This document shows, piece after piece, positions 21,628 to 62,553 of a stretch of DNA of 64,000 nucleotides. Source of the stretch: a bacterium (GTDB lineage Bacteria > Acidobacteriota > Aminicenantia > Aminicenantales > Aminicenantaceae). The DNA lies in assembly GCA_018335295.1 (NCBI GenBank), contig JAGXKI010000008.1, forward strand, positions 635 through 64,634. Reading direction: 5' to 3'. Positions within the stretch are counted from its first letter, which is position 1, and every line of letters begins with the position of its first letter. The position numbers and the translations under genes were made by a program. The notes beneath the pieces are model-generated. The model was not told the DNA's origin, made no database searches, and saw only the letters and a list, made by a program, of their open reading frames with translations.

Positions 21628-23208
21628 TTAACTGTTCAGGATTTTTTCGGCCTCTTCCTTGTCCACTTCTGTGATGTAAGGGATTCCGCTTATATCGGCA
21701 GCCTCTTTGGTGAGGGATGCTAAATCATCTCGAGAGATATAAGAAAGATTGAATTTTCGGTTTCCGGCCATCAGCTGACGGACTCCCTGCTGAAGTCTAT
21801 GGTAATAGCTGTAAAGACCCAATGCGCCGGTGGGAATGTCCGTGAATCTATCTTTGTACATCTGTTTGATTTCAGGAGCCGTGACAAAGATCTCTTCAGC
21901 ACTGTCACCGAATCGTTCCACATAAACCGGGATCTGTCCCTCATTGATTCTTTTCCCGATGGTTTTTCCTACCATGGTGGCGGCCACGGGTCCCCGGGCC
22001 ATACTCACCAATTTGAAATAGGGCGCTCCCAAGGCCAAGGCTTTGTAAATCTGATCTTCAAGAGTGATTCCCCCAGCAACAGCCACGTCGGGGATGTACT
22101 CTCCCTTATCATCGAGCTTTTTAAGGTATTGGTAGAGAAGAGACCAGATTTCCACACTGGGGATTCCCCATTCATTCATCATCCGCCAGGGGCTCATTCC
22201 TGTTCCTCCTCCGGCTCCGTCGACCGTAAGAAGGTCCAGCTTGGCTTTAGAGGCAAATTTGACAGCTCGAGCCAGGTCGGCCGGACGAAAAGCTCCTGTT
22301 TTGAGGAAGATATATTTGGCTCCGGCTTTCCTGAGTTCTTCCGCTCTTTTCATGAAGCTTTCTTCATCCACCATTCCCAGGCGGGAATGTCTTTCAAATT
22401 CTTTGAAGCTGCCTTTTTCGAATGATTTGATGACATTGGGGTCTTCCGGATTAGGGAGAACAATGTAGCCTCTTTTCTTTAATTTTTGGGCTTTTTCAAG
22501 GTCTTTGATTTTGACTTCGCCCCCGATATCCTTGGCTCCCTGTCCCCACTTCATTTCTACAGTATCCACCCCTAATTTGTCCATTACGTATTCCTGAACT
22601 TTCAATCGAGTGTCTTCTACGTTGGCCTGAACGGCCACTGTGCCGTATCCGTCCTGCTGCCAGTCTTTGAATAATCGAACCCGTCTTTCCATATCCGGGG
22701 AGCGGATAACTCTTCCGTTTTTTATTTCTGAATCCGGATCCATCGCGCACACATTTTCTCCAACCGAAAGAATGGTCCCTGATATAGCCGCTCCAATGGC
22801 CAAACCATCCCAGTTTTGTTTAGCCACATTGGTGGAACCCATGGCTCCAATGATAAAAGGAATTTTCAGCTTGAGCCCTTTATCGTGACCGATGGCTGTT
22901 TCGATGCTCACTTTGGGGAATATCGCCTTGTCGCTGTCGGCTTCCACACCATAAGCTCCTACGGCCGTACCCATAATGCTGAAGTGAGAAAGATCCACAG
23001 GATATTCTTTTTCTGAGGCGGACGTGATAATCCCGAAAGGTTGGGGGTAGAGGACTTCCGCACCTCGGTAAGCTGATTTTCCGATCTCACACATCCCGAT
23101 GCAGCCGTCCACACAAGTGGTGCACATACCGCTAAACGGACTGATAGAGCCTTCGGTCCTGTTTTTGGTTAATGTGGCCGCGCTTCGATTGAGTTTTGTA
23201 TAAGCCAT
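21628..23208 (-). CDS. Glutamate synthase FMN-binding domain protein (GltB domain-2 like, PF01645-type) with N-terminal Cys cluster; no amidotransferase domain
   Basis: TVDGAGGGTGMSP (cf. GltS HDGGTGASP), CTTCVDGCIGMC N-terminal cluster. Confidence 0.7.
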   Translation of the reverse strand: MAYTKLNRSAATLTKNRTEGSISPFSGMCTTCVDGCIGMCEIGKSAYRGAEVLYPQPFGIITSASEKEYPVDLSHFSIMGTAVGAYGVEADSDKAIFPKVSIETAIGHDKGLKLKIPFIIGAMGSTNVAKQNWDGLAIGAAISGTILSVGENVCAMDPDSEIKNGRVIRSPDMERRVRLFKDWQQDGYGTVAVQANVEDTRLKVQEYVMDKLGVDTVEMKWGQGAKDIGGEVKIKDLEKAQKLKKRGYIVLPNPEDPNVIKSFEKGSFKEFERHSRLGMVDEESFMKRAEELRKAGAKYIFLKTGAFRPADLARAVKFASKAKLDLLTVDGAGGGTGMSPWRMMNEWGIPSVEIWSLLYQYLKKLDDKGEYIPDVAVAGGITLEDQIYKALALGAPYFKLVSMARGPVAATMVGKTIGKRINEGQIPVYVERFGDSAEEIFVTAPEIKQMYKDRFTDIPTGALGLYSYYHRLQQGVRQLMAGNRKFNLSYISRDDLASLTKEAADISGIPYITEVDKEEAEKILNS

Positions 23209-23270
23209 TATAACTACCTCCTTATTTCCTCATTTATTTATAAACGAATAGGATAAGGCTAAGATATTCA

Positions 23271-23993
23271 TTATTTATGACCAGCCTTTTCCTTAGTCTC
23301 CTTTTCCGGGCCTTCCTTGACACATGTGCCGCAGCGGCCGGCATCATACATCCAGCACTGGAGTTCCTCATAGTAATCGAGACAGGTGGGATCCATTTGT
23401 AAACAGGCATTGCAAACCGTTGTGTCTGGATCGGGACCGTGACATCTCAATTGGCAGGCCGGACAGATGTACATGCAACCTCCGCACAGCCGGCATTCTT
23501 CGGAGCGCATATCAAAGGGGGTAGAAATCCTTCGTTTGTATCCTCTGTTTTGGAAGCCGATGGCCTTTCCCCCCATTTGTTCTCTGCACATCCGCACACA
23601 AAGCCCGCAGAGAACACATTCCTCATTTCGGACTTTAAACCGGCACTGCTTCACTCCGAATTTGGAGGCCAAATCCTGGATGGTTTTGGAATTGGGTGCT
23701 ATAGCCAGCATCAGTTCGATCATCATCCGCCGGGTCCGGATGACTCTTTGGGTGTCTGTATGAACCACCAGTCCTTTATGTACAGGGTAAGTGCAGGAGG
23801 AAACCAGTTTGGTTTTGGGAGTTTCTCCGATTTCCACAAGGCAGAGACGGCATCCTCCATACACACTCAGCCCTTCGTTGTAGCAGAGAGTGGGGATTTC
23901 GATGCCGTAAAATTTGGCTGTGTCCAAGATAGACCAGCCTTCTTCGGCTCTGACCTCTAAACCGTTCATTATTATATTGATCATTTTGACCAT
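23271..23993 (-). CDS. Ferredoxin-type subunit resembling NuoG/HydA N-terminal region (2Fe-2S plus two 4Fe-4S), lacking any catalytic domain
   Basis: CRLCLVEIG...SSC 2Fe-2S pattern; CVLCGLCVRMC and CRLCGGCMYICPAC clusters. Confidence 0.7.
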   Translation of the reverse strand: MVKMINIIMNGLEVRAEEGWSILDTAKFYGIEIPTLCYNEGLSVYGGCRLCLVEIGETPKTKLVSSCTYPVHKGLVVHTDTQRVIRTRRMMIELMLAIAPNSKTIQDLASKFGVKQCRFKVRNEECVLCGLCVRMCREQMGGKAIGFQNRGYKRRISTPFDMRSEECRLCGGCMYICPACQLRCHGPDPDTTVCNACLQMDPTCLDYYEELQCWMYDAGRCGTCVKEGPEKETKEKAGHK

Positions 23994-26900
23994 CCTAAAG
24001 CTTCTTTCCCGTCTTCTGTTTCCAGTTCACATCTCAAACATCTTCGAGCTTCTTTAATAGCTGTCTTTTCGTCGAATCCTAATAACACTTCTTTATAATT
24101 CTTTTGTCGGTCTTTCACAGACAGCTTAGGCATTTCTGGACGTTCGGCTTCCTCTATTTCCTTTTCAGTAAGTTCCACCGGTTCTACATACATAGAAGGA
24201 CGGGTGAGCTTGTGTTTTATAGAAAGGGATTCTCCCTTTAGGTATTTTTGAATGGATTCGGCGGCTTTTTTCCCTGAAGCCAAAGCTTCCACCACAGTGT
24301 TTGGGCCTGTGACCACATCTCCTCCTGCAAAAACTCCTTTTTGACCGGTGAGATAAGTTCTTTCATCAGCCACAATCGTGTTCCATTTGGTGATATTGAG
24401 GGAATCGCTTTCGGAAAGGAATGAAATATCAGGTCTTTCTCCAATGGCGGGAATAAGGGTGTCCAGTTCAACAGTAAATTCAGACCCTTCAATGGGGATG
24501 GGTCGTCTTCTTCCGCTGGAATCCATTTCTCCTAATCTCATCCGCACACATTGAACTCCTTTAATTTTTCCGTTTTCACTGATAACTTTTACTGGAGAAA
24601 CGAGAAATTGAATGTCGATTCCTTCTTCTATCGCAAAGTCTACCTCTTCTTCAAAGGCAGGCATTTCTTTCCGTGTTCTTCTATAGAGAACGGTTACTTT
24701 TTGACAATATTTATTTCTAATGGCCACCCGGGCTGCATCAATGGCAGCATTTCCGCCACCAATAATACCTGCCCTTTCTCCCAGATCGATGTCTTCTCCT
24801 AAGTTCGTAGCTTTAAGCAAATCCATAGCTTGGACAACTCCCTTGGATTGTTCTCCAGGAATGTTGAGTTTCATGGATTTATGAGCTCCGGTTGCCAGGA
24901 ACACGGCCTGGTATCCTTGATGAAAAAGGTCTTGGATAGAGAAATCTTTGCCTAAACGAGTGTTGGTTTTAAACTCGATTCCGCAGTTTTTGATGTATTC
25001 AAGATCGAATTCAAGAAAGGGTTTAGGCAGTCTGTGATCAGGAATTCCTATGGACAACATTCCTCCCAAAACAGGCAAGGCTTCAAAGAGGGTCACTGGA
25101 TATCCCTTTAGGTTCAGAGAGTACGCAGCAGCCAGGCCTGCGGGTCCAGATCCGATGACAGCCACTTTCTGTGTTTTGGAGGGTTCCCTATTTGGGGTGG
25201 AGCCTTTATATTCTTTTTCTCTGGCCCAATCTGTCACAAATCTTTTTAGGCCCCGAATCGCAATGGGTTTGCTTATTTCTCCGGCCCGACACACTTCTTC
25301 ACATGGATGATGACAAACTCGTCCACACACAGAGGGGAGGGGATTGTCTTTTCTGATTATATCCATAGCTTCCTGGAATTTTCCTTGGGCGATGAGGGCG
25401 ATATAGACAGGAGCTTCTTGGTCGACAGGGCAAATATATTGGCAGGGGGATGAAACTAGCTCTGTACATACCAAAGCCGGACATTGTTTTTTTTGAATGT
25501 GGGATTCGTATTCATCCCTGAAATATTTAATTGTAGAAAGGACTGGGTTCGCCGCCGTTTGACCTAACCCACATAAAGAAGCATCTTTAACTGCTTGAGC
25601 CAGTTCTTCCAAAAGATCAATGTCCTCTCTTTTTCCTTTTCCCAGGGAAATATCATTCACGATTTCCCACATATGTTGAGTTCCTTCCCGGCAGGAAAGA
25701 CATTTGCCGCAGGATTCATCTCGGAGAAAATTCAGAAAGTATTTGGAGACATCCACCATGCAGGTGCTTTCATCCATAACAATCATTCCCCCTGAACCCA
25801 TTATAGATCCGACTTCGGCTAAGCTTTCATAGTCAATAGGAAGGTCCAGTTTCTCTTTGGGAATACATCCTCCAGAAGGGCCTCCGGTTTGAACGGCCTT
25901 GAATTGTTTTCCTTCAGGAATTCCTCCCCCAATATCGAAGATGATTTCTTTGAGGGTAATCCCCATTGGCACTTCTACTAAACCGGTATTGTTGATTTTT
26001 CCCACTAAAGAAAAGATTTTAGTACCTTTACTTCCATTGGTCCCGATTTGGGAAAACCAATCCGCTCCGTTTTTGATAATGATGGGTATATTGGCCCAAG
26101 TTTCCACATTGTTGATATTGGTGGGCTTTTTCCATAAGCCTTTAACTGCAGGAAAAGGAGGACGTTGGCGGGGTTCTCCCACTTTTCCTTCTATAGAAGC
26201 AATCAAGGCTGTTTCTTCACCGCAGACAAAAGCTCCGGCTCCTTTAGCTATGTGAAGGTTAAAATTGAATCCAGTACCCAGTATGTTTTTACCCAGCAAT
26301 CCCATATTTTTGGCTTGAGTGATTGCTTTGGAAATGTGTTTGACCGCCAGCGGGTATTCATCTCTCACGTAGATGTATCCTTCTTCGGCTCCGATGGCAT
26401 AGGCACCCAGGAGCATACCTTCCAGAACTCGATGAGGATTTCCTTCCAGTAAACTACGGTCCATGTAAGCCCCTGGATCTCCTTCGTCGGCGTTGCAGAT
26501 GATGTATTTGGGATTTCCTTTGGCTTTGCGGGCGAATTCCCATTTTTTTCCGGTCGGGAAACCTGCGCCGCCTCTTCCTCTGATGCCGGATTCCTTGACC
26601 CTGTCAATGACTTCTTGAGGTTTCATTTCCTCTAGAACTTGAATCAAAGAACTGTACCCGCCTATAGACAGATAATCTTGAATGTCTTCTGGGTCGATCA
26701 ACGTATTATCACCCAGCACAATGCGTTTTTGTTTTTTATAGAAAGGAATATTTTTTTCTTTATAGATTGTTTGACCAGTTTGAGGGTCTGTAAACAGAAG
26801 ATGTTTAATAGGTTTATCTTTGAGAACTGTTTGATTGATGATCTCAGTGGCATCTTCAGGTTGGACGTGTTGATAGAATAAATCTTGAGGTTGAAGAATG

Positions 26901-27145
26901 ATATTGGGTTCTGCTTCACAAAAACCATGACAGCCAGTGATTTTAAGCTCGACTTGATCTTTTAACTTCTTTTTTTCAATTTCCTGTTTTAAAGCTTCCA
27001 CCACTTTAAGGGATCCTCTGGCTTGTCCGCAGGTTCCCGCCGAGACAGTGAGAATTTGGCGTTTATCAGAGTTCCTTTTTTGGACTTCTTTTTCAATGGT
27101 TTGTTTTAATTCTTGTGTTGATTTAATTCTCTTGAGGTTGTTCAT
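23981..27145 (-). CDS. Fusion protein: thioredoxin-like 2Fe-2S domain + NuoF/HydB-type NADH:FMN 4Fe-4S module + GltD/NfnB-type 2x[4Fe-4S] FAD/NAD(P)H oxidoreductase
   Basis: GRGGAGFPTGKKWEF, ESCGKCLSCREGT, SLCGLGQ (NuoF); CGRVCHHPCEEVC and VAVIGSGPAGLAAAY (GltD). Confidence 0.8.
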   Translation of the reverse strand: MNNLKRIKSTQELKQTIEKEVQKRNSDKRQILTVSAGTCGQARGSLKVVEALKQEIEKKKLKDQVELKITGCHGFCEAEPNIILQPQDLFYQHVQPEDATEIINQTVLKDKPIKHLLFTDPQTGQTIYKEKNIPFYKKQKRIVLGDNTLIDPEDIQDYLSIGGYSSLIQVLEEMKPQEVIDRVKESGIRGRGGAGFPTGKKWEFARKAKGNPKYIICNADEGDPGAYMDRSLLEGNPHRVLEGMLLGAYAIGAEEGYIYVRDEYPLAVKHISKAITQAKNMGLLGKNILGTGFNFNLHIAKGAGAFVCGEETALIASIEGKVGEPRQRPPFPAVKGLWKKPTNINNVETWANIPIIIKNGADWFSQIGTNGSKGTKIFSLVGKINNTGLVEVPMGITLKEIIFDIGGGIPEGKQFKAVQTGGPSGGCIPKEKLDLPIDYESLAEVGSIMGSGGMIVMDESTCMVDVSKYFLNFLRDESCGKCLSCREGTQHMWEIVNDISLGKGKREDIDLLEELAQAVKDASLCGLGQTAANPVLSTIKYFRDEYESHIQKKQCPALVCTELVSSPCQYICPVDQEAPVYIALIAQGKFQEAMDIIRKDNPLPSVCGRVCHHPCEEVCRAGEISKPIAIRGLKRFVTDWAREKEYKGSTPNREPSKTQKVAVIGSGPAGLAAAYSLNLKGYPVTLFEALPVLGGMLSIGIPDHRLPKPFLEFDLEYIKNCGIEFKTNTRLGKDFSIQDLFHQGYQAVFLATGAHKSMKLNIPGEQSKGVVQAMDLLKATNLGEDIDLGERAGIIGGGNAAIDAARVAIRNKYCQKVTVLYRRTRKEMPAFEEEVDFAIEEGIDIQFLVSPVKVISENGKIKGVQCVRMRLGEMDSSGRRRPIPIEGSEFTVELDTLIPAIGERPDISFLSESDSLNITKWNTIVADERTYLTGQKGVFAGGDVVTGPNTVVEALASGKKAAESIQKYLKGESLSIKHKLTRPSMYVEPVELTEKEIEEAERPEMPKLSVKDRQKNYKEVLLGFDEKTAIKEARRCLRCELETEDGKEALGWSK

Positions 27146-27617
27146 TTTCTTTCTCTTTTTTATGATAGGTCTTTAAGATCGAACCGACCTTGCGGATGTT
27201 GGTGTGGGAATAATAATTTCCGTCAACCACCACAACGGGACCTATGGCACAGCATCCCAAACAAGCCACGGTTTCCAAGCTGAATTGTTTGTCTTCTGTA
27301 GTTTCTCCAGATTCGATTCCCAGTTTCCTTTCAAACTCTTCCAGGATTTTGGGGCCTCCGCGGACATGGCAGGCTGTGCCCATACATACAGTGACCATAT
27401 GTTCTCCTTTAGGCTCAAGACTGAACGACCTGTAAAAAGTGGCCACACTGATAATGTCAATGAGGGGGATCCCTAAAGTTTGGGAAACGAATCTCAAGGC
27501 TTCTGCAGGGAGATAATTGTATTCACCTTGAATGTCTTGAAGGATGGAAATGAGGGCTTGTTTTTTTGAATCATGTTTTTCTATAAAAGATTTGATCTTT
27601 TGAGTTTCGGCATTCAC
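27123..27617 (-). CDS. NuoE/HoxE/HndA-type thioredoxin-like [2Fe-2S] subunit
   Basis: CMGTAC...ACLGCC cluster motif. Confidence 0.8.
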   Translation of the reverse strand: MNAETQKIKSFIEKHDSKKQALISILQDIQGEYNYLPAEALRFVSQTLGIPLIDIISVATFYRSFSLEPKGEHMVTVCMGTACHVRGGPKILEEFERKLGIESGETTEDKQFSLETVACLGCCAIGPVVVVDGNYYSHTNIRKVGSILKTYHKKEKENEQPQEN

Positions 27618-27747
27618 GGAAACTTCTCCCTTATGATTGATTTATAGGAGGAAAAGGATGAAAATATTAATATAAAATTGAGTTTTTAAATATTAGAAAA
27701 AAAACCTATTATTCCTCCTCTTAACCTATATTAATTAATAACCAAAA

Positions 27748-27777
27748 CATATACCAGATATAAATTTCAGTTGTCAA
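27748..27777 (-). promoter_or_regulatory. Candidate promoter for the nuoE-like operon (minus-strand TTGACA at 27772-27777, TATATG-like -10 at about 27748-27753)
   Basis: Hexamers in AT-rich 220-bp upstream region; weak -10. Confidence 0.25.
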
Positions 27778-27837
27778 GAAATTTTTTGGCCTTTAGAGGG
27801 AGGAGAATCAAAGAAATGTTGGAATGATGAAAAGGAT

Positions 27838-29244
27838 TTATAGAAAAGGCAGGTATTTTTGAATTTCATAGTCGCTGACCTGTTTATCAAATTCTGTGGT
27901 CACATTCTTGGTGTATTCTTCAATTTCCCATTTTTTATTGGAGATGAATTTGTTGAAAACATGCTCTCCCAATGTCTCTTTAACCAAAGCGCTGTTTTTA
28001 GTGAAGGAGACAGCTTCCTTCAATCCTTGGGGAAGAACTTTGATTTTTAATTTTTTTTGTCTTGATTTGCTCATTTCATAGATGTTTTCTTCTACAGGGT
28101 CTTCCAGTACATATTTGTTTTGTATCCCTTTCATCCCGGCCATCAGCATGATAGAAAAAGCCAAATAGAGATTGCAGGAAGGATCGGCAGCTCTGAGTTC
28201 GATTCGGGTGGCCTGTTCCTTTCCTGGCTGATACTCTGGAACCCGGATGTAAGCCGAACGGTTCCTTTGTCCCCAGGCCACATAAACGGGGGCTTCATAA
28301 CCTTCAATCAACCGTTTGTAAGAGTTGACCCATTGACAGAGCAGAGAAGAAATTTCTCCCGAGTGAGCCATCAGTCCCGCTATGTACTGACGGGCCTTTT
28401 GCGAAAGTTGGTAGGTGTTTTTTGGGTCAAAGAAAATATTTTTTCCATTCTTCCATAGAGATTGATGGACATGCATGCCGCTTCCATTTTGGGCGTTGAG
28501 GGGTTTAGGCATAAAAGTGGCATAAAGATTGTGCATCCGGGCCACTTTTTTGACCAGATACCGGAAGATCATGGAACTATCAGCCATATCTAAGGCAGAA
28601 AGATATTTGAGGTCAATTTCGTGCTGCCCGTGAGCCACCTCGTGATGGTCATATTCGGATTTTATCCCCATTTTTTTGAGTAAAAGTTGGACCTCTTTTC
28701 GAATCTCTCCCTGTCGGCCTCCAAAAAAGTAACCTCCTTTATCTAAAGCCACAGCCTCTTTATCGTTGGGAAAGAGAAAAAATTCTAGTTCGGGGCCAAT
28801 TTTGAAGTCATCGATCCCCCATTCTTTCTTTCCCCTTTCCAATGCTTTTTTCAAGACAAGCCGGGAATCTCCTTCATAAGGCTCCCCTCCTGGTTTGAAA
28901 ATATCTCCAAACATGATGGCTTCTCTCCATATGGTGTTTTCGTCAAATCCATGATAAGACCAGGGGAGAACTCGAAAGGTAGAAGCATCGGGTTTGATGA
29001 TCAAGTCGCTTTCTTCGATACGAACAAAGCCTTCTACCGAAGAACCATCAAATCCCTTGCCTTCTTGGAATGTTTTTCCCAGTTCATGATTGGGAATAGT
29101 GAAGTCCATAGGTCTCCCTAGAATATCGGGAAATATGATGCGGACAAATTCGATTTTGTGGGAAGGATCTAATACCGTGTCCAGTACCTCATCGGAGTTT
29201 TCATAACCAAAAAACTTTATATCGGAATGAAAGCCACTTTCCAT
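27838..29244 (-). CDS. glnA: Glutamine synthetase, type I
   Basis: 468 aa, GS beta-grasp and catalytic domain pattern (EVAHGQHEID, NGSGMHVHQS). Confidence 0.85.
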   Translation of the reverse strand: MESGFHSDIKFFGYENSDEVLDTVLDPSHKIEFVRIIFPDILGRPMDFTIPNHELGKTFQEGKGFDGSSVEGFVRIEESDLIIKPDASTFRVLPWSYHGFDENTIWREAIMFGDIFKPGGEPYEGDSRLVLKKALERGKKEWGIDDFKIGPELEFFLFPNDKEAVALDKGGYFFGGRQGEIRKEVQLLLKKMGIKSEYDHHEVAHGQHEIDLKYLSALDMADSSMIFRYLVKKVARMHNLYATFMPKPLNAQNGSGMHVHQSLWKNGKNIFFDPKNTYQLSQKARQYIAGLMAHSGEISSLLCQWVNSYKRLIEGYEAPVYVAWGQRNRSAYIRVPEYQPGKEQATRIELRAADPSCNLYLAFSIMLMAGMKGIQNKYVLEDPVEENIYEMSKSRQKKLKIKVLPQGLKEAVSFTKNSALVKETLGEHVFNKFISNKKWEIEEYTKNVTTEFDKQVSDYEIQKYLPFL

Positions 29245-30041: not shown

Positions 30042-30282
30042 ATACAGAAGGGATTATTTTCCAGCCCCTTACTCCCCGCTGTAAAAATTCTTTATAATAG
30101 GACAAATAAAAAAGAAAAAATAAGTCTTTTTCATAAAGGGAAATGGGTCTACGGTTCCCAGGGGAATAAACTTTTGCAAGAATCTGGCATAAAATTTGCC
30201 TTAGATACAGGATGAGTGTTGTGTTCCATAGAAATGAAAAGCCATTTTTTTTTAAAATGTTCATTTCTGCTAAAATAAATAG

Positions 30283-33028: not shown

Positions 33029-34420
33029 TCAGGAGGAGAGGATATCTCGGGTGTCGATATCGAGTCTTTTGATCATTTCGTTCAGAGTAGTGGGCTTGAC
33101 TCCTAGAAATCGGGAAGCCTTTTTTTGAACTCCGTTGGCCTTTTTTAAGGCATCAATGATCGCTTTCTTTTGGTAGTGCTTCATTTGTTCTTTGAGGGTC
33201 ATGTGAGCCGAGGCGGAGGTGGTATTTTCCTTTTCTTGGGGCGGGGCTAAGAAAGAGGGAGGAAGATTTTTTCGAGTAATGATTTTGGTCTTGGTTAAAA
33301 CCACGGCTCTTTCGATAAGATTTTCTAATTCTCTGATGTTTCCAGGCCAATCATAGTTTTCCAAAATTTCCATCACATCTTGGGATACTTCTTGGATTTC
33401 CTTGTTGTTTTCTTTGCTGTAGATGTTCAGAAAATGCTTAACTAAAAGAGGAATATCTTCTTTTCTATCCCTTAAAGGAGGAAGTTCAATTTTAATGACA
33501 TTCAACCGGTAGAACAGATCTTCCCGGAATTTATTCTGGTTGATGAGCTCTTCTAAATCAGCATTTGTGGCTGCGATAACCCGAACATCTACTTTTATGG
33601 TACTGGTTCCTCCGAGCCTCATAAATTCTCGGTCTTGCATGACTCTTAGAAGTTTGGCTTGAGTTTCCATGTTGAGAGTGGATATTTCGTCAAAGAAAAT
33701 AGTCCCCTTATCTGCGGCCTCAAACAATCCCTCTTTTTGCTGTACCGCCCCAGTGAAGGCTCCTTTGACGTGACCGAAAAGATGGCTTTCCAGTAAATCA
33801 GGGGGGAGGGAACCGCTGTTGACAACAATAAATGGATAATCCGAGCGGTTGCTGTTTTGGTGAACTGCTCTGGCGACCAGTTCCTTTCCAGTTCCACTTT
33901 CTCCTTGGATAAGAATGGTGCTTCGAGAGGAGGAGGTGGCTTTTATGGTTTCGAAAACATTGTTCATTAATTTGCTTTTGCCGATTATACTGTTAAAACT
34001 AAATTTCTTCTGGAGCTGACTTTTTAACCGGAGATTTTCTTCTTGAAGTTTCTTATGTTCAAGGGCTCTTTTAACCGTCATCAGCAGGTCTTCGTGTTTA
34101 AAAGGTTTCTGGATGTAATCATAAGCTCCTGTTTTCATAGCGGAAATAGCGGATTCCACCGAAGCATAGGCGGTAATGATGATGATCACGGCCGTAGGAT
34201 CCCTTTTTTTGATCTTTTTAAGGACTTGAAGGCCGTCCATTCCAGGCATGAGCAGGTCCAAAAGGATGAGGTCAAACGGTTGGGAGGAATGTTTTTTTAA
34301 AGCTTCCTCTCCCGTCGAGGATATTTCAAGTTCATATCCTTCAGAGGAGAGAAGATCTCCTAAAATTTCATGGATGATGGGTTCATCATCCACGATGTGA
34401 ATGATTCCTTTTTTACTCAT
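33029..34420 (-). CDS. NtrC-family sigma-54-dependent response regulator (REC + AAA+ + HTH); PilR-like by context
   Basis: DLILLDLLMPGMDG receiver, GESGTGKE, GAFTGA, C-terminal HTH. Confidence 0.85.
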   Translation of the reverse strand: MSKKGIIHIVDDEPIIHEILGDLLSSEGYELEISSTGEEALKKHSSQPFDLILLDLLMPGMDGLQVLKKIKKRDPTAVIIIITAYASVESAISAMKTGAYDYIQKPFKHEDLLMTVKRALEHKKLQEENLRLKSQLQKKFSFNSIIGKSKLMNNVFETIKATSSSRSTILIQGESGTGKELVARAVHQNSNRSDYPFIVVNSGSLPPDLLESHLFGHVKGAFTGAVQQKEGLFEAADKGTIFFDEISTLNMETQAKLLRVMQDREFMRLGGTSTIKVDVRVIAATNADLEELINQNKFREDLFYRLNVIKIELPPLRDRKEDIPLLVKHFLNIYSKENNKEIQEVSQDVMEILENYDWPGNIRELENLIERAVVLTKTKIITRKNLPPSFLAPPQEKENTTSASAHMTLKEQMKHYQKKAIIDALKKANGVQKKASRFLGVKPTTLNEMIKRLDIDTRDILSS

Positions 34421-34430
34421 TTTTTTTCTC

Positions 34431-37265
34431 TCATGAAGATTGGGTCATTTTCCTTTTATCCAAGTCCATGGGAATATAAATAGTAAAAAGGGAGCCTTTT
34501 CCTTCTTCGCTTTCCACACTCAAATGACCTTCATGTTCTTTGATGATGGCATAACTAATAGAAAGTCCTAGGCCTGTTCCTTTTCCTATGCCCTTGGTGG
34601 TAAAGAAAGGATCAAAGATATTGGGCAGATGTTGTTCTTTGATTCCTGTCCCCGTATCTTTGATCGTGACGATGGCTTGATTATCCGTGTTGGATAATTG
34701 GATTTTAAGGGTTCCTCCGTTAGGCATGGCGTCGATGGCATTAAGGATGATATTGATGAAGACTTGCTGGAGTCTTTCCCCTTGAGCCCATATGGAAGGA
34801 ATAGAAGGAAGTTCCAGTTCTAAGTTGATCTTCATGTTCTTCAGTTTATAATCAATCAGGGATAAGATCTCTTCAATATTTTCTTTGAGCTTCACTTGGT
34901 AAAAAGAGGATTCGGAAGGATTCCGGGCGAAATTAAGGAGATTTTTAACAATTTTTCCTACTCTCTCTGTTTGGTTTTCGATCTTGTCCAAGATTTGTGA
35001 ATGAGAATCATTGGTGAGTTTTTTCTGTAAAAGCTGTACGTAACTGGAGATACCCGTAAGAGGGGTGTTGATTTCATGAGCCACTCCCGCTGAAAGGAGT
35101 CCCACAGAGGCCAGCTTTTCTGAAGTGAGAAGCTGCTGTTGGAGAGAGAACTTTTCCGTGATATCTTCAAAGACGATGACTGTGCCATAAGGGTTCATCT
35201 GGTTATCCAACAACGGAGTTTTGGCAATATCAAAGATTTTTTTCTCTCCAGAAGGCATTTCCAGAGTCACTTCACTGAGCAAACGAAATCCTTTCTGGGT
35301 GTCTGGAGGAAAAAGGGCCGCATAATTCTCTTCTCCCAACACTTGAAGCAGTTTTTTATCCATAACCTCTTCTTTTTTATGAGAAAAAGTTTCTTCCATG
35401 ACCCGATTCCAGCCCATGATTTTTCCCGATTGGTCCAGTACAGCCACTCCCACAGTCAGACTTTCAATGATGTTTTCACTGTAGTCTTTCAACATTTCCA
35501 GTTCTCGAGCTCGACTCTGAGCCTGGTTATACAGATAAGCGTTTTCTAAGGCCAGTCCCACCGAGGAAGCGATGGTTTTGAGCAACTCCCAATCTTCACT
35601 GTTCAGGTAAGTGTTATCTGTCTTTTTCCCCATAGCCAAGCAGCCTACCATCTTATCTTCAACCTTTAATGCCAATAAATGATGAAATCCTCTGGAGGAG
35701 AGGTTTTTCAATTTATCTTTCAAGGTCCTTTTTTCAGAAAGGGAATCCGCGGAAATGAAATTCTCTTTTTTTAAATGGTGGTAAATTTGGGGATCAAAAG
35801 TGATTTGTTTCTCTGGAGAGGAAGAATTTCCCATGGATTTCAAGATGTAAAAGGAATCCTTGTTGTTTTCATCTGGGAGAAGAAGAGCGATGTATTGGAG
35901 CGATAGAGCATTGGAAATGAGATTGAGAAGGGATTGAGAAAGTTTTTGAAGGTTTCTCTCTTTATTGAGCTGTTCGCTGATGGAAAGAAGGGTCTTCCGG
36001 TAATGATAGCTTTTTTTGTATATGACCCTATCCAGAAGAGATTGGAAAAGATTTTTTAAAGGTGAAAAAAGAGTGGCTCCCAAAATAATGGCGAGAATGC
36101 CCAGGATGAGAGCATTGAGTCTATTTTCAGAGAAGATTTTTGTTTGTGAGCTGACGATAAAATAGACTATAGCGATCACCACATAGGAAGAGATGAGAGT
36201 GACGGCTTTTTTGAGTATAATTTCGAGATCAAAAAATTTATACCTGGAAATGGAATAAGCGAAAGTTAAAGGGATGAGAGCTTGGAGGATGACTGTAAAT
36301 TCAGCCCCCTTGGAGGGGACATTTCCTAAAAGAAAAGGAAGGATATAGATAAGAGTGAATGGGAGGATGGCAAAACAGAGGCCGTAGACGATGCCTTTCA
36401 GCTGCTTTTTAATGATAGGATTAGGAGATTTAAAGATTCCCATGACGAGAAGTCCCACTGTGAACAGGGAATAGAGGCCAAAATGAACCAGATCCAGTGT
36501 TTCAGAAGTTTTGTGGAGGTTTAATACCGTAAATTCATTAAGAGAGACAGTATGGAGGACCCCTTTGAAGGAAAGAAGAAGGAAGGCAGGGATGTATAAA
36601 AGGATAGAAGAGCGGAGTATGCTTTTTAAGATTTTTTTTCTCTTGGGAAAAGTGTTGAAAAAATGGAGCATCAAAGGTGGAAAAAACAGAAAAGCTATTT
36701 TATCCAGCCAGAAAAACAAAGAGTCCCAAACATCCAGTTGGCCGGTTGGAGAAAATGTATAAAAAGCAAAGAAAGTCACACAAAGAAGAAAAAAGAACCC
36801 ATAAGGAAGGAAAAAAGGTTTATCCGAGCTGAAGAAAACGATGAGCCCGATGGCCAGGGTGGTGATTCCCACTAAAGAAAGGAAAAAGTAAATAAGGTTA
36901 GTTCCCTTTTTCCGGAGATAAAATGAGGGGTGAGCCAGATTTCCTTCAAGGTTTCCTTCCCGAGCGATCTCGTAGGTGACCTTTTGGTTCAGTCCATCCG
37001 CTTCCCATAATTTTTTGGAGAGGTCAATTTTGTTCTTTATGGGAGTGTCGTTGATTGAATAAAGAATATCCCCTTTTTTGATTCCATGTAAATAAGCTGG
37101 ACTCCCTTCTTCTACTTTTACAGCCGTGAGGCCTTCCGGAGTTTTTTCCCAAATGACTCCGTCGGTGGGTTCTTTCCAGGTGGCTTTTCTGTATATATTC
37201 AATGCCCCCAGAGCGAACAACAGAAGTAAAGGCGGTATTACCAGGAGATAGATTTTTTTATTCAT
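34431..37265 (-). CDS. Sensor histidine kinase: TM + periplasmic PDZ + 7 TM helices + GAF + PAS + HisKA + HATPase_c (ORF extends to 37334; MNKK at 37265 with AAGGAA RBS is the likelier start)
   Basis: PDZ-like GSPAYLHGIKKGDIL; AHEINTPL H-box; GTGLGLS G-box. Confidence 0.8.
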   Translation of the reverse strand: MNKKIYLLVIPPLLLLFALGALNIYRKATWKEPTDGVIWEKTPEGLTAVKVEEGSPAYLHGIKKGDILYSINDTPIKNKIDLSKKLWEADGLNQKVTYEIAREGNLEGNLAHPSFYLRKKGTNLIYFFLSLVGITTLAIGLIVFFSSDKPFFLPYGFFFLLCVTFFAFYTFSPTGQLDVWDSLFFWLDKIAFLFFPPLMLHFFNTFPKRKKILKSILRSSILLYIPAFLLLSFKGVLHTVSLNEFTVLNLHKTSETLDLVHFGLYSLFTVGLLVMGIFKSPNPIIKKQLKGIVYGLCFAILPFTLIYILPFLLGNVPSKGAEFTVILQALIPLTFAYSISRYKFFDLEIILKKAVTLISSYVVIAIVYFIVSSQTKIFSENRLNALILGILAIILGATLFSPLKNLFQSLLDRVIYKKSYHYRKTLLSISEQLNKERNLQKLSQSLLNLISNALSLQYIALLLPDENNKDSFYILKSMGNSSSPEKQITFDPQIYHHLKKENFISADSLSEKRTLKDKLKNLSSRGFHHLLALKVEDKMVGCLAMGKKTDNTYLNSEDWELLKTIASSVGLALENAYLYNQAQSRARELEMLKDYSENIIESLTVGVAVLDQSGKIMGWNRVMEETFSHKKEEVMDKKLLQVLGEENYAALFPPDTQKGFRLLSEVTLEMPSGEKKIFDIAKTPLLDNQMNPYGTVIVFEDITEKFSLQQQLLTSEKLASVGLLSAGVAHEINTPLTGISSYVQLLQKKLTNDSHSQILDKIENQTERVGKIVKNLLNFARNPSESSFYQVKLKENIEEILSLIDYKLKNMKINLELELPSIPSIWAQGERLQQVFINIILNAIDAMPNGGTLKIQLSNTDNQAIVTIKDTGTGIKEQHLPNIFDPFFTTKGIGKGTGLGLSISYAIIKEHEGHLSVESEEGKGSLFTIYIPMDLDKRKMTQSS

Positions 37266-37350
37266 GTTCCTTGGTCGTGAACCGGAAAGTCCCAATTTTG
37301 ACTCAAAATCCAAAAAATTGAATCGCTCTGACAAAAAATATATGGGTCGT

Positions 37351-37629
37351 TCAATATAAAATGTGTTTTTCTTCGGACCTGATGGCCCATTTTATGTTGG
37401 ACTGGTTGAGAAATTTTTTCAGATCCTTGTTTTCCTTGAGACCTAACGGTTTGGTGTTCCGAGATAAAAAAGTACTCATATAATCATATTTCCCCTTTTT
37501 TACAGTCTGTGGAGCTCCTTCTTTGAGTTTACTCCATAAGGACCCAGACGAGTAACCCTTATGGATAGAGGACAAAATGAAGGCGGAAAGAAGAAACAGA
37601 AGAACCATCCCCACTTTTTTGTATCTCAT
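37351..37629 (-). CDS. Small secreted hypothetical protein (92 aa, signal peptide, C-terminus ...KHILY)
   Basis: ORF with N-terminal hydrophobic signal; 17 nt upstream of the kinase gene. Confidence 0.4.
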   Translation of the reverse strand: MRYKKVGMVLLFLLSAFILSSIHKGYSSGSLWSKLKEGAPQTVKKGKYDYMSTFLSRNTKPLGLKENKDLKKFLNQSNIKWAIRSEEKHILY

Positions 37630-37711
37630 TTATCTTTAAAATAATATTTTATATGGATTTTGTCAACAAGGCCAGAGTCCGTGTTTCCCCTTAAAACCCT
37701 AGGGGATGAAT

Positions 37712-37740
37712 TTGACAAATTTCAGGGTATGACCTAATAT
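37712..37740 (+). promoter_or_regulatory. Candidate sigma-70 promoter for pilC-pilB...: -35 TTGACA (37712-37717), 17-nt spacer, -10 TAATAT (37735-37740)
   Basis: Read directly. Confidence 0.4.
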
Positions 37741-42660: not shown

Positions 42661-43147
42661 ATATTTTATCTTGGCCTTTTTATTTTTAAGTTTAAGTTTT
42701 ATGGGGGAAGGAAGTGAACAAGAAGAAAAGTCTGTAGACCGGGAAGGAAAAAAAATGGAGAAGCCCCCGCTGGTGAGGATAGATTTGTTGGATTGGAAAG
42801 AAGAAAAATTAAAGCCTCCGGCTCGAAACATATTTTCTTCCTCATTATCTTCATTTGAACCTTCTCACCCTGTTGAAAAAGAATCGATGACCCATCCTCC
42901 CGCTCAAGAAGAAAACGCCCCCAGCACTCCCTCCCCTTCCTTTATAAGGCTTCGTTATGTCGGGTGTGTCTTTTCAGGCGAAAAAATCGTGGGTCTTGTG
43001 ATTTTTGAAGGTGAAACGTTAGCGGTGGAAAAAGGAGACTCCCTAACTTCAAAGTTTCAGGTGAAGGAAATCACTCCCCAAAAAATAGTGGTGCAAGGTT
43101 CTGATTCCCATAAAAAGTCTTATCCTCTGGAAGGAGAGGAGAAATGA
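42650..43147 (+). CDS. pilP: PilP-like secreted/lipoprotein pilus assembly protein
   Basis: Signal peptide, Pro/Ser-rich linker, C-terminal beta domain; gene order before secretin. Confidence 0.4.
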   Translation: MKTKYFILAFLFLSLSFMGEGSEQEEKSVDREGKKMEKPPLVRIDLLDWKEEKLKPPARNIFSSSLSSFEPSHPVEKESMTHPPAQEENAPSTPSPSFIRLRYVGCVFSGEKIVGLVIFEGETLAVEKGDSLTSKFQVKEITPQKIVVQGSDSHKKSYPLEGEEK

Positions 43148-45288
43148 AAAAAATATCTGTTTTGATCGTAATAAGTTTACTGTTTTGGAGCTGTGCTACG
43201 TTCAGCCGGAACTATAAATTGGGAACAGAGGAAGCCGTGAATAAAAATTGGGATAAGGCTGTGGAATACTACCAGAAAGCTCACTTGAACCATCCTAAAA
43301 ATTCAGTCTACCGTCTCGCCCTGATCAGAGCTAAGATCTCAGCCAGTTACTCTCATCTTATGAAAGCCCGAAACCTCGCTTCTCAGGGAAAAAAGGAAGA
43401 GGCTGTCCAAGAATATGAAAAAGCCTTCTCTTATGATCCCTCAAACCGAAGGATTGCCCAGGAAATTAAAGAACTCACTGAGGAGAAGGAAAAAGAAGAA
43501 GAAAAAACTCTCAAGAGAGAGATTGAACCTCCGGTGAAGCTTCAAGTGAGGGAGGAAAAGTTAGATCTTAAATTTCATGAAGCCAGCCTCCGGTCTATCT
43601 TTATGGCTCTGGGCAAACATGCGGGAATCAACATCATGTTCGATCAGCAGTTTAAAGATATTCCCTTTACCATCAATCTGGAAGGAATGACCTTTGAACA
43701 AGCGATGCATTCGCTCTGTCTGGCATCCAAAAATTTCTACAGGGTGATCGATGCGAAAACTCTTATTGTGGTCCCTGACCAGCCTGTTAAGAGAGCCCAG
43801 TACGAGATTGAGGCCATCAAAACCTTCTATCTTTCCAACATCAAAGCTGAAGAGATTCAAGGTTCTCTTCAGCAGATGCTCCGGACTCAGTACAAAGCGC
43901 CCACTATCATTGTGGATAAAAACCTGAACTCCTTGACCATAAGAGATTCTCCTCAAGCGGTGGAATTGGCCCAAAAGGTTATCCGCCTTTGGGATAAGCC
44001 GAAAGGGGAAGTGGTTATCGATATGGAAATTATGGAGGTTTCCAGGAAAAGGATGAGAAAATTGGGACTGGACTTCAATCAATACATCGTGGGCATGAGA
44101 TATGGAGGAACTGGAGGTGGGGGAGAGACAGAAGAATCCGGATGGGTCAATATGAAAGATATCGATTTTTCCAAGGCAGAGAATTATCAATTTAGTCTTC
44201 CTTCTTCCCTGCTTCAATTTTTAGAGACCGATTCGGATACCAAGATTATTTCTCAGCCTCGGCTGCGGGGAATTGGAGGTGAGGAGATCGAATACATGGT
44301 GGGAGATCGAATCCCCATTCCCCGTACTACCTTCCAGCCGATGGCTGCCGGCGGGATCAGTCAGCAGCCGGTAACCTCCTTTCAGTTTGAGGATGTGGGG
44401 ATCAATGTGAAAATCACCCCCAGAATTCATAAGGAAAGGGAGGTAACCTTGGAATTGGAGATGGAGATCAATGCCCTAGGGGGCTCCGGTTATGCAGAAA
44501 TCCCTATCATTTCCTCAAGAGAAGTCAAGAATACCCTCCGTCTCCGGGATGGAGAAACCAATATCCTGGGTGGTTTGCTTAAAGAGGAAGAGAGAAAAAC
44601 CATGAAGGGAATTGCGGGCCTAAAAAGCATCCCTATTTTGGGAGATTTGTTTTCCAACACCGATCAGACTATTGAGCAGACCGATGTGATTCTCACCATT
44701 ACTCCCCGGATCATTCGGGAAATTCCTTTGACTGAGGAAGATTTAAAGCCTTTATGGGTGAATTTATCTGGAATCTCTCCCACCCAGAAAGGCACCCAGA
44801 AAGTGCCTGAAGAAGAACTTATGGAACGTATGCGGAGGGAAAGGAGGACCCCGGAAAAAGAAGAACAGGCTGGAGAAAATCAGGTGTTCCTTCATCCCTC
44901 TGACTTGAGTGTTCCTCAAGGTCGGGAATTTCGGGTTAACGTGAATCTTCGGAGCGCTAACGAAATCTCCAACCTCTCGGTCAATGTGAATTTCAACTCC
45001 CAAATACTGGAATTAAAGGAAGTGGTTCGAGGCACGGCTGTTCGGCAATTAGGAGAAAAGGCTCCGTTTTTGAGTAATATTGACAATTCTTCCGGGAGCT
45101 GCACCATCGGTTTTTCCAGTCCCGATGTCAGCCAGGGATATAAAGGAACCGGAAGGTTGGCCACGTTGGTATTTGTTTCAGAAGCAAAAGGAGAGACCGA
45201 AATTTCTTTATCCAGTGTCACAGCCAATGCTCCTTCTGGGGAACCGGTCTCTTTGAACAGAGGAACTTCCCAAGTTAAAGTCAAATAA
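43144..45288 (+). CDS. pilQ: Type IV pilus secretin PilQ with N-terminal TPR lipoprotein-like module and C-terminal cohesin-like extension
   Basis: Signal/lipobox-like LFWSC; TPR helices; Secretin_N (NolW) segments; secretin core ...GIAGLKSIPILGDLFS...VILTITPRII; about 190-aa C-terminal beta-sandwich-like tail. Confidence 0.85.
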   Translation: MKKISVLIVISLLFWSCATFSRNYKLGTEEAVNKNWDKAVEYYQKAHLNHPKNSVYRLALIRAKISASYSHLMKARNLASQGKKEEAVQEYEKAFSYDPSNRRIAQEIKELTEEKEKEEEKTLKREIEPPVKLQVREEKLDLKFHEASLRSIFMALGKHAGINIMFDQQFKDIPFTINLEGMTFEQAMHSLCLASKNFYRVIDAKTLIVVPDQPVKRAQYEIEAIKTFYLSNIKAEEIQGSLQQMLRTQYKAPTIIVDKNLNSLTIRDSPQAVELAQKVIRLWDKPKGEVVIDMEIMEVSRKRMRKLGLDFNQYIVGMRYGGTGGGGETEESGWVNMKDIDFSKAENYQFSLPSSLLQFLETDSDTKIISQPRLRGIGGEEIEYMVGDRIPIPRTTFQPMAAGGISQQPVTSFQFEDVGINVKITPRIHKEREVTLELEMEINALGGSGYAEIPIISSREVKNTLRLRDGETNILGGLLKEEERKTMKGIAGLKSIPILGDLFSNTDQTIEQTDVILTITPRIIREIPLTEEDLKPLWVNLSGISPTQKGTQKVPEEELMERMRRERRTPEKEEQAGENQVFLHPSDLSVPQGREFRVNVNLRSANEISNLSVNVNFNSQILELKEVVRGTAVRQLGEKAPFLSNIDNSSGSCTIGFSSPDVSQGYKGTGRLATLVFVSEAKGETEISLSSVTANAPSGEPVSLNRGTSQVKVK

Positions 45289-62410: not shown

Positions 62411-62504
62411 CCTTTGAGGATGGGGAGGGCGGAAAAGTCTTTTCTATGACTATTTAAGCTGTCACCTGTCCCCATATGGTGACAGATAAGACCTTTGAGG
62501 ATAG
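62411..62504. promoter_or_regulatory. Direct repeats CCTTTGAGGAT(G/A)G at 62411-62423 and 62492-62504 flanking an inverted repeat CTGTCACC-N11-GGTGACAG (62459-62485)
   Basis: Read directly; 50 nt upstream of the next gene start. Confidence 0.4.
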
Positions 62505-62553
62505 TTTTTATATTGGCATATATTTTGCTTTCTAAGGAACTAGAAAGGAGTTC

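Follow-up and report, generated by a model that had tools for sequence, protein, structure and literature searches.

An exported protein, a PDZ-containing sensor kinase and an NtrC-family regulator encoded as a conserved unit in Aminicenantes

What does a histidine kinase with a PDZ domain in its sensor detect, and which genes does its partner regulator control? The question is raised by a three-gene unit on contig JAGXKI010000008.1, from a bacterium of the Aminicenantaceae; the window referred to throughout is the whole 64-kb stretch of that contig that was analysed. The unit encodes, in order, a small exported protein, the kinase and a sigma-54-dependent response regulator, and stands next to a cluster of type IV pilus genes. 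An earlier note on this DNA had proposed that the hydrophobic C-terminus of the small protein is the ligand of the PDZ domain and that the resulting circuit controls the adjacent pilus genes, as PilS/PilR does. Open reading frame (ORF) calling and a Pfam scan, the basis of gene and domain assignments in the window, recovered the three genes where that note had placed them (Table 1).

The explanation towards which we lean, on balance, is that this sigma-70-driven operon encodes an envelope-sensing two-component system with an exported partner protein, and that it does so throughout the Aminicenantes. The small protein would be exported or membrane-anchored, and its basic domain of ~50 amino acids would serve as a partner – a co-sensor or modulator – at the periplasmic or membrane face of the kinase. 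It would not be a canonical C-terminal tail ligand of the PDZ groove, which may read the end of some other periplasmic peptide or protein. The kinase would phosphorylate the regulator, and the regulator would in turn activate sigma-54 promoters.

The small ORF is a genuine gene and not a chance reading frame: it has 94 database homologues, occurs at 75 species-level loci and shows 15 invariant columns in an alignment of 35 sequences. All homologues whose phylum is named by the source belong to the Aminicenantes. They share a common layout, in which a variable linker joins a hydrophobic signal or anchor segment at the N-terminus to a conserved, basic domain of ~55 amino acids at the C-terminus (median isoelectric point of the domain 10.2; consensus ...KYDYMSTFLSRNTKPLGLKEN..L..FL.Q..IKWAIRS..HIL-x). 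The hydrophobic segment, itself variable in sequence, is present in 89 of 89 homologues with enough N-terminal sequence and is preceded by Lys or Arg in 81 of these; the signal peptide suggested earlier is thereby upheld as an export or anchor segment. Searches of Pfam, NCBIfam and PDB profiles gave no match to the small protein. AlphaFold2 (AF2) places a helix at residues 3-25 and short helices at 50-55, 68-74 and 77-91, with a predicted local distance difference test score (pLDDT) of 67.

The promoter ahead of the small ORF is conserved too. The element TTGACAAA..GAAAG.TTTAT[CT]TT is found in 73 of 77 loci, and this sigma-70 promoter is almost invariant across the phylum. In 60 of the 73 promoter-bearing loci the start codon lies 6-10 nt past the -10 box, which implies an operon mRNA that probably has no leader, or next to none. 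No terminator was found between the small ORF and the kinase gene in the window. Certain database entries lengthen the small ORF upstream by translating the promoter itself (…LTKSRESFILK…).

The kinase had been described as a protein of 967 amino acids with a PDZ domain, a 7-TM block, GAF, PAS and a kinase core. The domain order holds: Pfam detects PDZ_2 (residues 63-129, E 1.6e-8; PDZ_6 also matches), GAF_3, PAS, HisKA and HATPase_c. The length does not, for the protein is probably one of 944 amino acids starting at Met24: in the alignment the first residue of every homologue falls at Met24 (MNKK...), and the ATG at 37265 has a Shine-Dalgarno sequence, AAGGA, 5 nt ahead of it. With this start the gap after the small ORF would be ~85 nt. 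The membrane block also differs from the one described, since hydropathy and the positive-inside rule indicate ten transmembrane (TM) segments in all, nine of them past the PDZ domain; the match to HisKA_7TM (residues 154-370) scores 26.1 bits, just below the cut-off of 28.6.

Loops rich in Lys and Arg share one side of the membrane with the N-terminus and the GAF domain, and the PDZ loop is across from them. An AF2 model of kinase residues 24-450 (pLDDT 79, predicted template modelling score 0.72) has the same order of parts: the PDZ domain follows TM1 and leads into nine TM helices (H124-398 in model numbering), after which comes a cytoplasmic helix; the nine helices agree with the count from hydropathy. 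The alignment used for structure prediction left out four homologue entries (P0002, P0012, P0026 and P0027), which are frameshifted or garbled, with long Pro/Arg/Ala-rich stretches that are presumably assembly errors. From the model and the positive-inside rule together the PDZ domain is predicted to be periplasmic, as had been supposed. Foldseek matched the PDZ part to the PDZ domains of HtrA, DegP, DegQ, DegS and CtpA (E about 3e-4 to 3e-3) and the TM block only weakly, to GPCR-like structures; in its modelled fold the domain is thus of the HtrA/DegS/CtpA type. Across 55 divergent family members the EPTDGVxW carboxylate-loop and KKGD/KGD motifs are among the most conserved sensor positions, and the PDZ residues G36, W39, G65 and D66 are nearly invariant.

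The third gene encodes an NtrC-type sigma-54 response regulator, as first described: Pfam finds Response_reg, Sigma54_activat (E 4.6e-70), AAA_lid_14 and HTH_8, the motifs GAFTGA and GESGTGKE can be read in the translation, and the helix-turn-helix (HTH) is of the Fis type. This set of receiver, sigma-54 AAA+ and HTH domains occurs in the NtrC family at large and does not single out PilR. The closest solved structures in the PDB are NtrC4 and NtrC1. Among named NCBIfam families, those of AtoS/AtoC and NtrB/NtrC score best for kinase core and regulator, but the scores lie well under the equivalog cut-offs (AtoS kinase core, 302 bits against 646; AtoC, 494 against 714; NtrC, 449 against 558.6) and the sensor region is unrelated to theirs. 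The recognition helix of the regulator, KPTTLNEMIKRL, is distinctive.

How far does the unit persist in relatives? A core set of Aminicenantes loci (L001-L078) comprised 75 species-representative loci plus L001-L003. Wherever the contig allows, all of them have the order small gene, kinase, regulator, so that the conservation of the three-gene unit, which the earlier note had put forward as a check, holds. The surroundings are equally constant where contigs allow: pilC and pilB run divergently on one side, and on the other a gene for an M1-family peptidase converges on the regulator gene. One locus, L032, is an exception in having no M1 gene beside the regulator. Because such uniform synteny cannot single out those neighbours that are tied to one another, more distant relatives were compared.

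A full-library search with the sensor region returned 3135 cluster representatives at E <= 1e-3, of which 639 remain at E <= 1e-10. Among the matches are many proteins of 920-990 amino acids whose alignment spans the entire sensor, with 25-37% identity; the two family members that carry a source taxon name are both Acidobacteriota. Going by these matches, the kinase-regulator pair extends into other Acidobacteriota. Six distant neighbourhoods (L201-L206) all lack pil genes. At L204 (47% identity) an M28 peptidase gene and then an ORF of the small-protein family (hmmsearch E 7e-22) lie upstream of the kinase, and a convergent M1 peptidase gene followed by AdoMet_dc lies downstream of the regulator. 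At L202 (36% identity) the upstream gene encodes an exported protein of 505 amino acids, residues 34-85 of which correspond to the small domain (hhalign probability 95.8%, E 6.7e-9), and the M1 gene is again convergent to the regulator. The remaining four are more distant and have no M1 gene; GWxTD-domain and CarboxypepD_reg proteins are encoded nearby at L201, L203 and L206, and an unrelated protein of 461 amino acids is encoded upstream at L205. The small domain was not found in L201 or L203. The window-type recognition helix is kept in L202, L203 and L204.

Since the small domain is kept beside the kinase in L204 and L202, where the flanks have changed, it travels with the kinase whether or not pil genes are present; the kinase-regulator pair is the deepest conserved core. 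A mirror-tree comparison of 46 loci plus the window provides a second view of the relationship. Pairwise distances of the small domain correlated with those of the kinase TM block (raw r 0.71; partial r 0.45 once a phylogeny proxy was removed) and PDZ domain (0.68; 0.43), and with those of the kinase cytoplasmic part (0.61; 0.20) and the regulator (0.60; 0.21); raw values for PilC and PilB were 0.58 and 0.38. The pattern favors a tie of the small domain to the PDZ and TM parts of the kinase over one to its cytoplasmic part or to the regulator, although it is suggestive only.

Several points weigh against our preferred explanation. That the small protein meets the kinase at all is something we infer, and the AF2 model of the small protein is low in confidence. 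The core Aminicenantes region is syntenic throughout, which makes adjacency there weak evidence; the discriminating cases are two loci only, L202 and L204. Distant Acidobacteriota kinases (L201, L203) do without the small domain, and other partners are encoded upstream of such kinases. Similar rates of evolution may account for part of the mirror-tree signal, since a correlation of 0.65 is also seen with the M1 peptidase, which evolves fast. The presumed nature of the contact and the synteny of the core region fit another account, in which the small ORF has no functional link to the kinase and is no more than a neighbour kept in place, such as an accessory protein of the envelope or the pilus. 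We consider this account quite improbable: with both flanks changed, L204 and L202 still have the small domain immediately ahead of the kinase, and in the window the two genes share a strand and a promoter across the short, terminator-free gap described above.

Larger proteins are encoded near several of the distant kinases. Genes for proteins of 500-610 amino acids lie upstream of the PDZ kinase and co-directional with it at L202:7355-8872, L203:7034-8818 and L206:6916-8757, and divergent, two genes away, at L201:5062-6858. These proteins have an N-terminal hydrophobic segment and Phe-terminal tails (...EFNF, ...VRF, ...FVF, ...FIF); the L202 protein (...EFNF) is the one that carries the small-protein domain, at its N-terminus. 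A Phe-terminal tail is typical of outer-membrane beta-barrel proteins, and it is such C-termini that the PDZ domain of DegS reads. A weak sigma-54-like element is present ~60-65 nt ahead of the kinase start at L201:8921-8936 (TGGCAAGCAGCGTGCT) and L206:8927-8942 (TGGTACATGAAGTGCA), which hints at autoregulation of the kinase in that clade; no such element was found ahead of the kinase in L203 or in Aminicenantes.

We now turn to the proposed ligand. Were the C-terminus of the small protein to dock in the PDZ groove as outer-membrane protein tails do in DegS, the kinase would be activated and the regulator would drive the pilus genes in the manner of PilS/PilR. Several features suit this proposal: the PDZ domain has an HtrA/DegS-type fold and a predicted site in the periplasm, the small protein would be exported to the same compartment, and the position of its C-terminus is strict, exactly one residue past a conserved H-[ILV]-L in every case. 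That residue, however, is seldom hydrophobic. Among the 94 homologues it is N in 55, D in 30, Y in 3, K in 3, Q in 2 and E in 1; among 78 loci, D in 37, N in 35, E in 3, Q in 2 and R in 1. Asn or Asp thus ends 85 of 94 homologues and 72 of 78 loci, and the terminal Tyr of the window protein is confined to close relatives of its genome. In L202, moreover, the homologous ...KNILD is internal, with ~420 residues after it.

DegS reads a hydrophobic tail of the YxF type, and PDZ domains of the HtrA/DegS type are not known to read a polar terminal residue. Because the last residue is Asn or Asp in ~90% of cases and the motif is internal in L202, canonical tail-in-groove binding is unlikely as the conserved mechanism, and the hydrophobic C-terminus proposed as PDZ ligand in the earlier note finds no backing in the homologues. 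An interaction of the small protein with the sensor at the level of the domain is plausible.

The second half of the same proposal, control of the pilus genes, can be examined at their promoters. The window was scanned for sites with <=1 mismatch to TGGCAC-N5-TTGC. This revealed three: 30185(+), upstream of the M1 peptidase gene; 62514(+), upstream of a gene for a FecR/DUF6600 protein; and 54770(-), inside a PilY1-like ORF. None lies near any pil gene. Across the loci a -24/-12 element was accepted if it matched >= 9/11 consensus positions with GG and GC intact; in the intergenic region on the pilC side, one was found on the pilC strand in 1 of 71 loci and on the small-ORF strand in 0 of 71. 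Strict and relaxed scans alike found no sigma-54 site ahead of the minor-pilin operon, and the promoter of pilC is of the sigma-70 type. On this promoter evidence the targets of the regulator are not the adjacent pilC-Q or minor-pilin genes, and the suggested control of the pilus cluster has found no support.

The module does adjoin pilC and pilB in all core Aminicenantes loci, and the major pilin gene, with its promoter, lies outside the window: a scan for pilin motifs found three minor pilins only and no major pilin gene. PilR-like control of a distant pilA is conceivable but has no support among our findings; no pilin was found downstream of the enhancer-promoter pattern described below in 120 metagenome stretches. 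The linkage to pilus genes, too, fails in L201-L206. PilS has six TM helices and no periplasmic domain, and senses pilin within the membrane. Our module resembles PilS/PilR in combining a multi-TM kinase with an NtrC-family activator beside pil genes, in core Aminicenantes, but its kinase has ten TM segments and a PDZ loop of ~100 amino acids; no PilS or PilR family is among the listed NCBIfam matches. By sensor architecture, by promoter evidence at the pil genes present and by stability of linkage it is not a member of that group. Taken with the polar tails, these data make the proposal of a tail-activated, PilSR-like circuit very improbable.

If not the pilus genes, what might the regulator control? 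The only conserved sigma-54 promoter near the module is, by our scans, that of the convergent M1 peptidase gene. A -24/-12 element precedes this gene in 52 of 55 loci, and a palindrome, TGTAAA-N5-TTTACA, is present in 50 of 58 M1 promoters, in most of them at a distance of 64-93 nt ahead of the -24 element; the remainder of the 16-kb loci is essentially free of this palindrome. One could therefore envisage a sensor of peptide or protein turnover, in which the PDZ domain detects the C-termini of periplasmic peptides and the regulator activates the M1 promoter through the palindrome as an upstream activating sequence (UAS). Consistent with such a role, L204 and L202 are without pil genes but keep an M1 gene convergent to the regulator, and the UAS-promoter design usually lies beside an NtrC-type regulator gene in a metagenome scan.

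That scan, for the composite of palindrome and sigma-54 promoter, returned >120 stretches, and among the matches listed are only three M1 promoters and 17 copies of a second system. The latter, likewise from Aminicenantes, has a Peptidase_M19 (dipeptidase) gene, then the same palindrome and a sigma-54 promoter (for example, L199:5840-5955), then genes for SBP_bac_5, a HAMP kinase and an NtrC regulator. One genome has both this system and the PDZ-kinase module on a single contig, ~45 kb apart. The regulator of the second system is 41% identical to the window regulator, but the recognition helices differ (SRPTLDKKIKDY against KPTTLNEMIKRL in the window). We had considered a firm assignment of the M1 promoter to the window regulator and dropped it, as the same UAS stands ahead of this second two-component operon; the assignment was weakened further by L204, where the M1 gene lacks the palindrome and its promoter is of the extended -10 sigma-70 kind, and by L202, where no sigma-54 site was found, the regulator HTH being kept in both.

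Because of the shared palindrome, the differing helices and the loss of the site in L204 and L202 despite a kept HTH, the second regulator is a candidate for the M1 promoter at least as probable as the window regulator, and it would autoregulate the operon that encodes it. That the window regulator controls the M1 peptidase is accordingly possible but rather doubtful, and sensing of protein turnover through this promoter, against which the missing M1 gene of L032 also counts, is a minority explanation, less probable than the one we prefer. The enhancer and promoter shared by the M1 peptidase gene and the SBP_bac_5 operon suggest a sigma-54 peptide-utilisation regulon, which is relevant to the regulation of peptide use in these presumed protein degraders.

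The composite also occurs elsewhere. In the metagenome loci L079-L198 (for example, L189, L107 and L179) it lies, among the matches listed, upstream of TolC-like (26 loci), MacB/FtsX-like (12) and other genes, often with an NtrC-type regulator gene adjacent where the locus is long enough (HTH ...SRPTLYSKLKKY); record names point in part to gut or rumen samples. This type of enhancer is thus widespread beyond the Aminicenantes.

A comparison with known systems helps to place the exported partner. The quorum-sensing kinase ComP is reported to span the membrane ten times, with its two termini inside the cell and a PDZ domain in the first extracellular loop, for which ComX binding has been proposed (PMC9620489). 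Kinases with PDZ, HisKA_3 and HATPase_c have been catalogued as the 'ComP' family, with the NarL-type ComA as partner (PMC6411480). The window kinase matches ComP at the level of topology: ten TM segments, the PDZ domain in the TM1-TM2 loop and cytoplasmic termini, with a weak Pfam HisKA_7TM match and a small gene directly upstream, like comX before comP. It differs in its GAF-PAS-HisKA (PF00512) core and NtrC/sigma-54 partner, as opposed to HisKA_3 and NarL-type ComA. A quorum-sensing system in which the small protein is the precursor of a secreted signal sensed by the kinase is the least probable of the explanations considered: besides the differing core and partner, no ComQ-like prenyltransferase is found among the called genes of the loci, the 92-amino-acid exported-type protein is strongly conserved in place of a hypervariable prenylated peptide, and its domain can be fused to a large protein. 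The module is thus no ComQXPA system.

A bolder version of our preferred explanation takes the likeness to ComP further. The exported protein with its 50-amino-acid domain would be the dedicated extracytoplasmic partner or ligand of a ComP-like kinase, an Acidobacteriota-wide Gram-negative counterpart of ComX-ComP; and because the partner in relatives is an outer-membrane-type protein ending in Phe, the system might monitor the assembly of a cognate envelope protein through the PDZ domain. We regard this version as unlikely, though less so than a quorum-sensing system. If it were true, the kinase would be doing what DegS does with a protease. With DegS/HtrA the window kinase shares the PDZ fold, its periplasmic site and the conserved carboxylate-loop region, but the PDZ domain sits on a kinase and not on a protease, and the small proteins end in Asn or Asp.

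Some envelope kinases are modulated by accessory proteins, as in CpxP-CpxA, MzrA-EnvZ and ExoR-ExoS. By analogy, the small protein is best likened to these accessory or co-sensor proteins, being small, exported or anchored, co-encoded with its kinase and presumably on the periplasmic face. It has no relation to them in sequence or fold, and its own interaction with the kinase is a proposal.

What, then, is new? PDZ domains in sensor kinases have been catalogued before, with ComP as the named family, and the literature on periplasmic PDZ sensor kinases offered nothing specific beyond ComP; nor did we find anything specific on Aminicenantes pili. To our knowledge, the ligand and mechanism of a kinase PDZ domain are unknown even for ComP. 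The present locus leads to a large family of PDZ/10-TM kinases, in Aminicenantes and other Acidobacteriota, that are paired with sigma-54 regulators and accompanied by a co-encoded, lineage-specific exported protein; with the 639 cluster representatives reported above, the family reaches far beyond one genome. Aminicenantes and other Acidobacteriota are abundant and uncultivated. Both the PDZ loop and the 50-amino-acid domain are small and soluble, so that the conserved exported partner offers a tractable handle on the question of what a periplasmic PDZ domain detects when it is part of a kinase.

Table 1. Features of the three-gene unit and its flanks in the window.
Feature	Position	Strand	Details
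Small exported protein	37351..37629	(-)	92 aa, ends KHILY
Sensor histidine kinase	34431..37265	(-)	944 aa from Met24 (probable start)
Kinase open frame reaching TTG start	34431-37334	(-)	967 aa
Periplasmic TM1-TM2 loop with PDZ (predicted)	36888..37196	(-)	Pfam PDZ_2, PDZ_6; AF2; Foldseek
Nine-TM-helix block, HisKA_7TM-like	36057..36887	(-)	Hydropathy, positive-inside rule; AF2; Pfam PF16927, 26.1 bits
Cytoplasmic GAF, PAS, HisKA, HATPase_c	34464..35954	(-)	Pfam; H-box AHEINTPL in translation
NtrC-family sigma-54 activator response regulator	33029..34420	(-)	463 aa; Pfam
Sigma-70-type operon promoter TTGACA-17-TATTTT	37638..37666	(-)	Ends 8 nt ahead of small-ORF ATG
Sigma-70-type promoter TTGACA-17-TAATAT of divergent pilC-pilB operon	37712..37740	(+)	
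UAS palindrome TGTAAAAATTCTTTATA	30080-30096	(+)	Upstream of convergent M1 peptidase gene
Sigma-54 -24/-12 element TGGCATAAAATTTGCC	30185-30200	(+)	Upstream of convergent M1 peptidase gene
Secreted M1-family peptidase gene	30283/30292-32871		Convergent to regulator

The divergent neighbours of the unit are pilC (T2SSF), pilB (T2SSE) and four small ORFs in the positions of pilMNOP, assigned by position; past these lie genes for a PilQ-type secretin, tRNA-Met, tilS, asnB, three minor pilins and the PilY1-like protein. The secretin, at 43144-45288 (+), carries TPR repeats at its N-terminus and a cohesin domain at its C-terminus, along with a FecR_C-like domain. This make-up of TPR, secretin and cohesin looks unusual for a type IV pilus secretin, and the combination recurs in L001 and L003.

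Towards the end of the window, at 62459-62529 (+), a palindrome of another kind, CTGTCACC-N11-GGTGACAG, stands ahead of a second good sigma-54 site (TGGCATATATTTTGC). Downstream of this site an ORF extends from 62556 to beyond 63998 and runs off the window; its product has an N-terminal hydrophobic segment and FecR and DUF6600 domains. A nitrogen-assimilation cluster occupies 21628-29244 (-) and includes glutamine synthetase (27838-29244), a 1054-amino-acid Nuo51-like/4Fe-4S/pyridine-nucleotide oxidoreductase fusion and a glutamate-synthase-domain protein. The absence of the M1 gene from L032 brings glnA close to the regulator gene at that locus.

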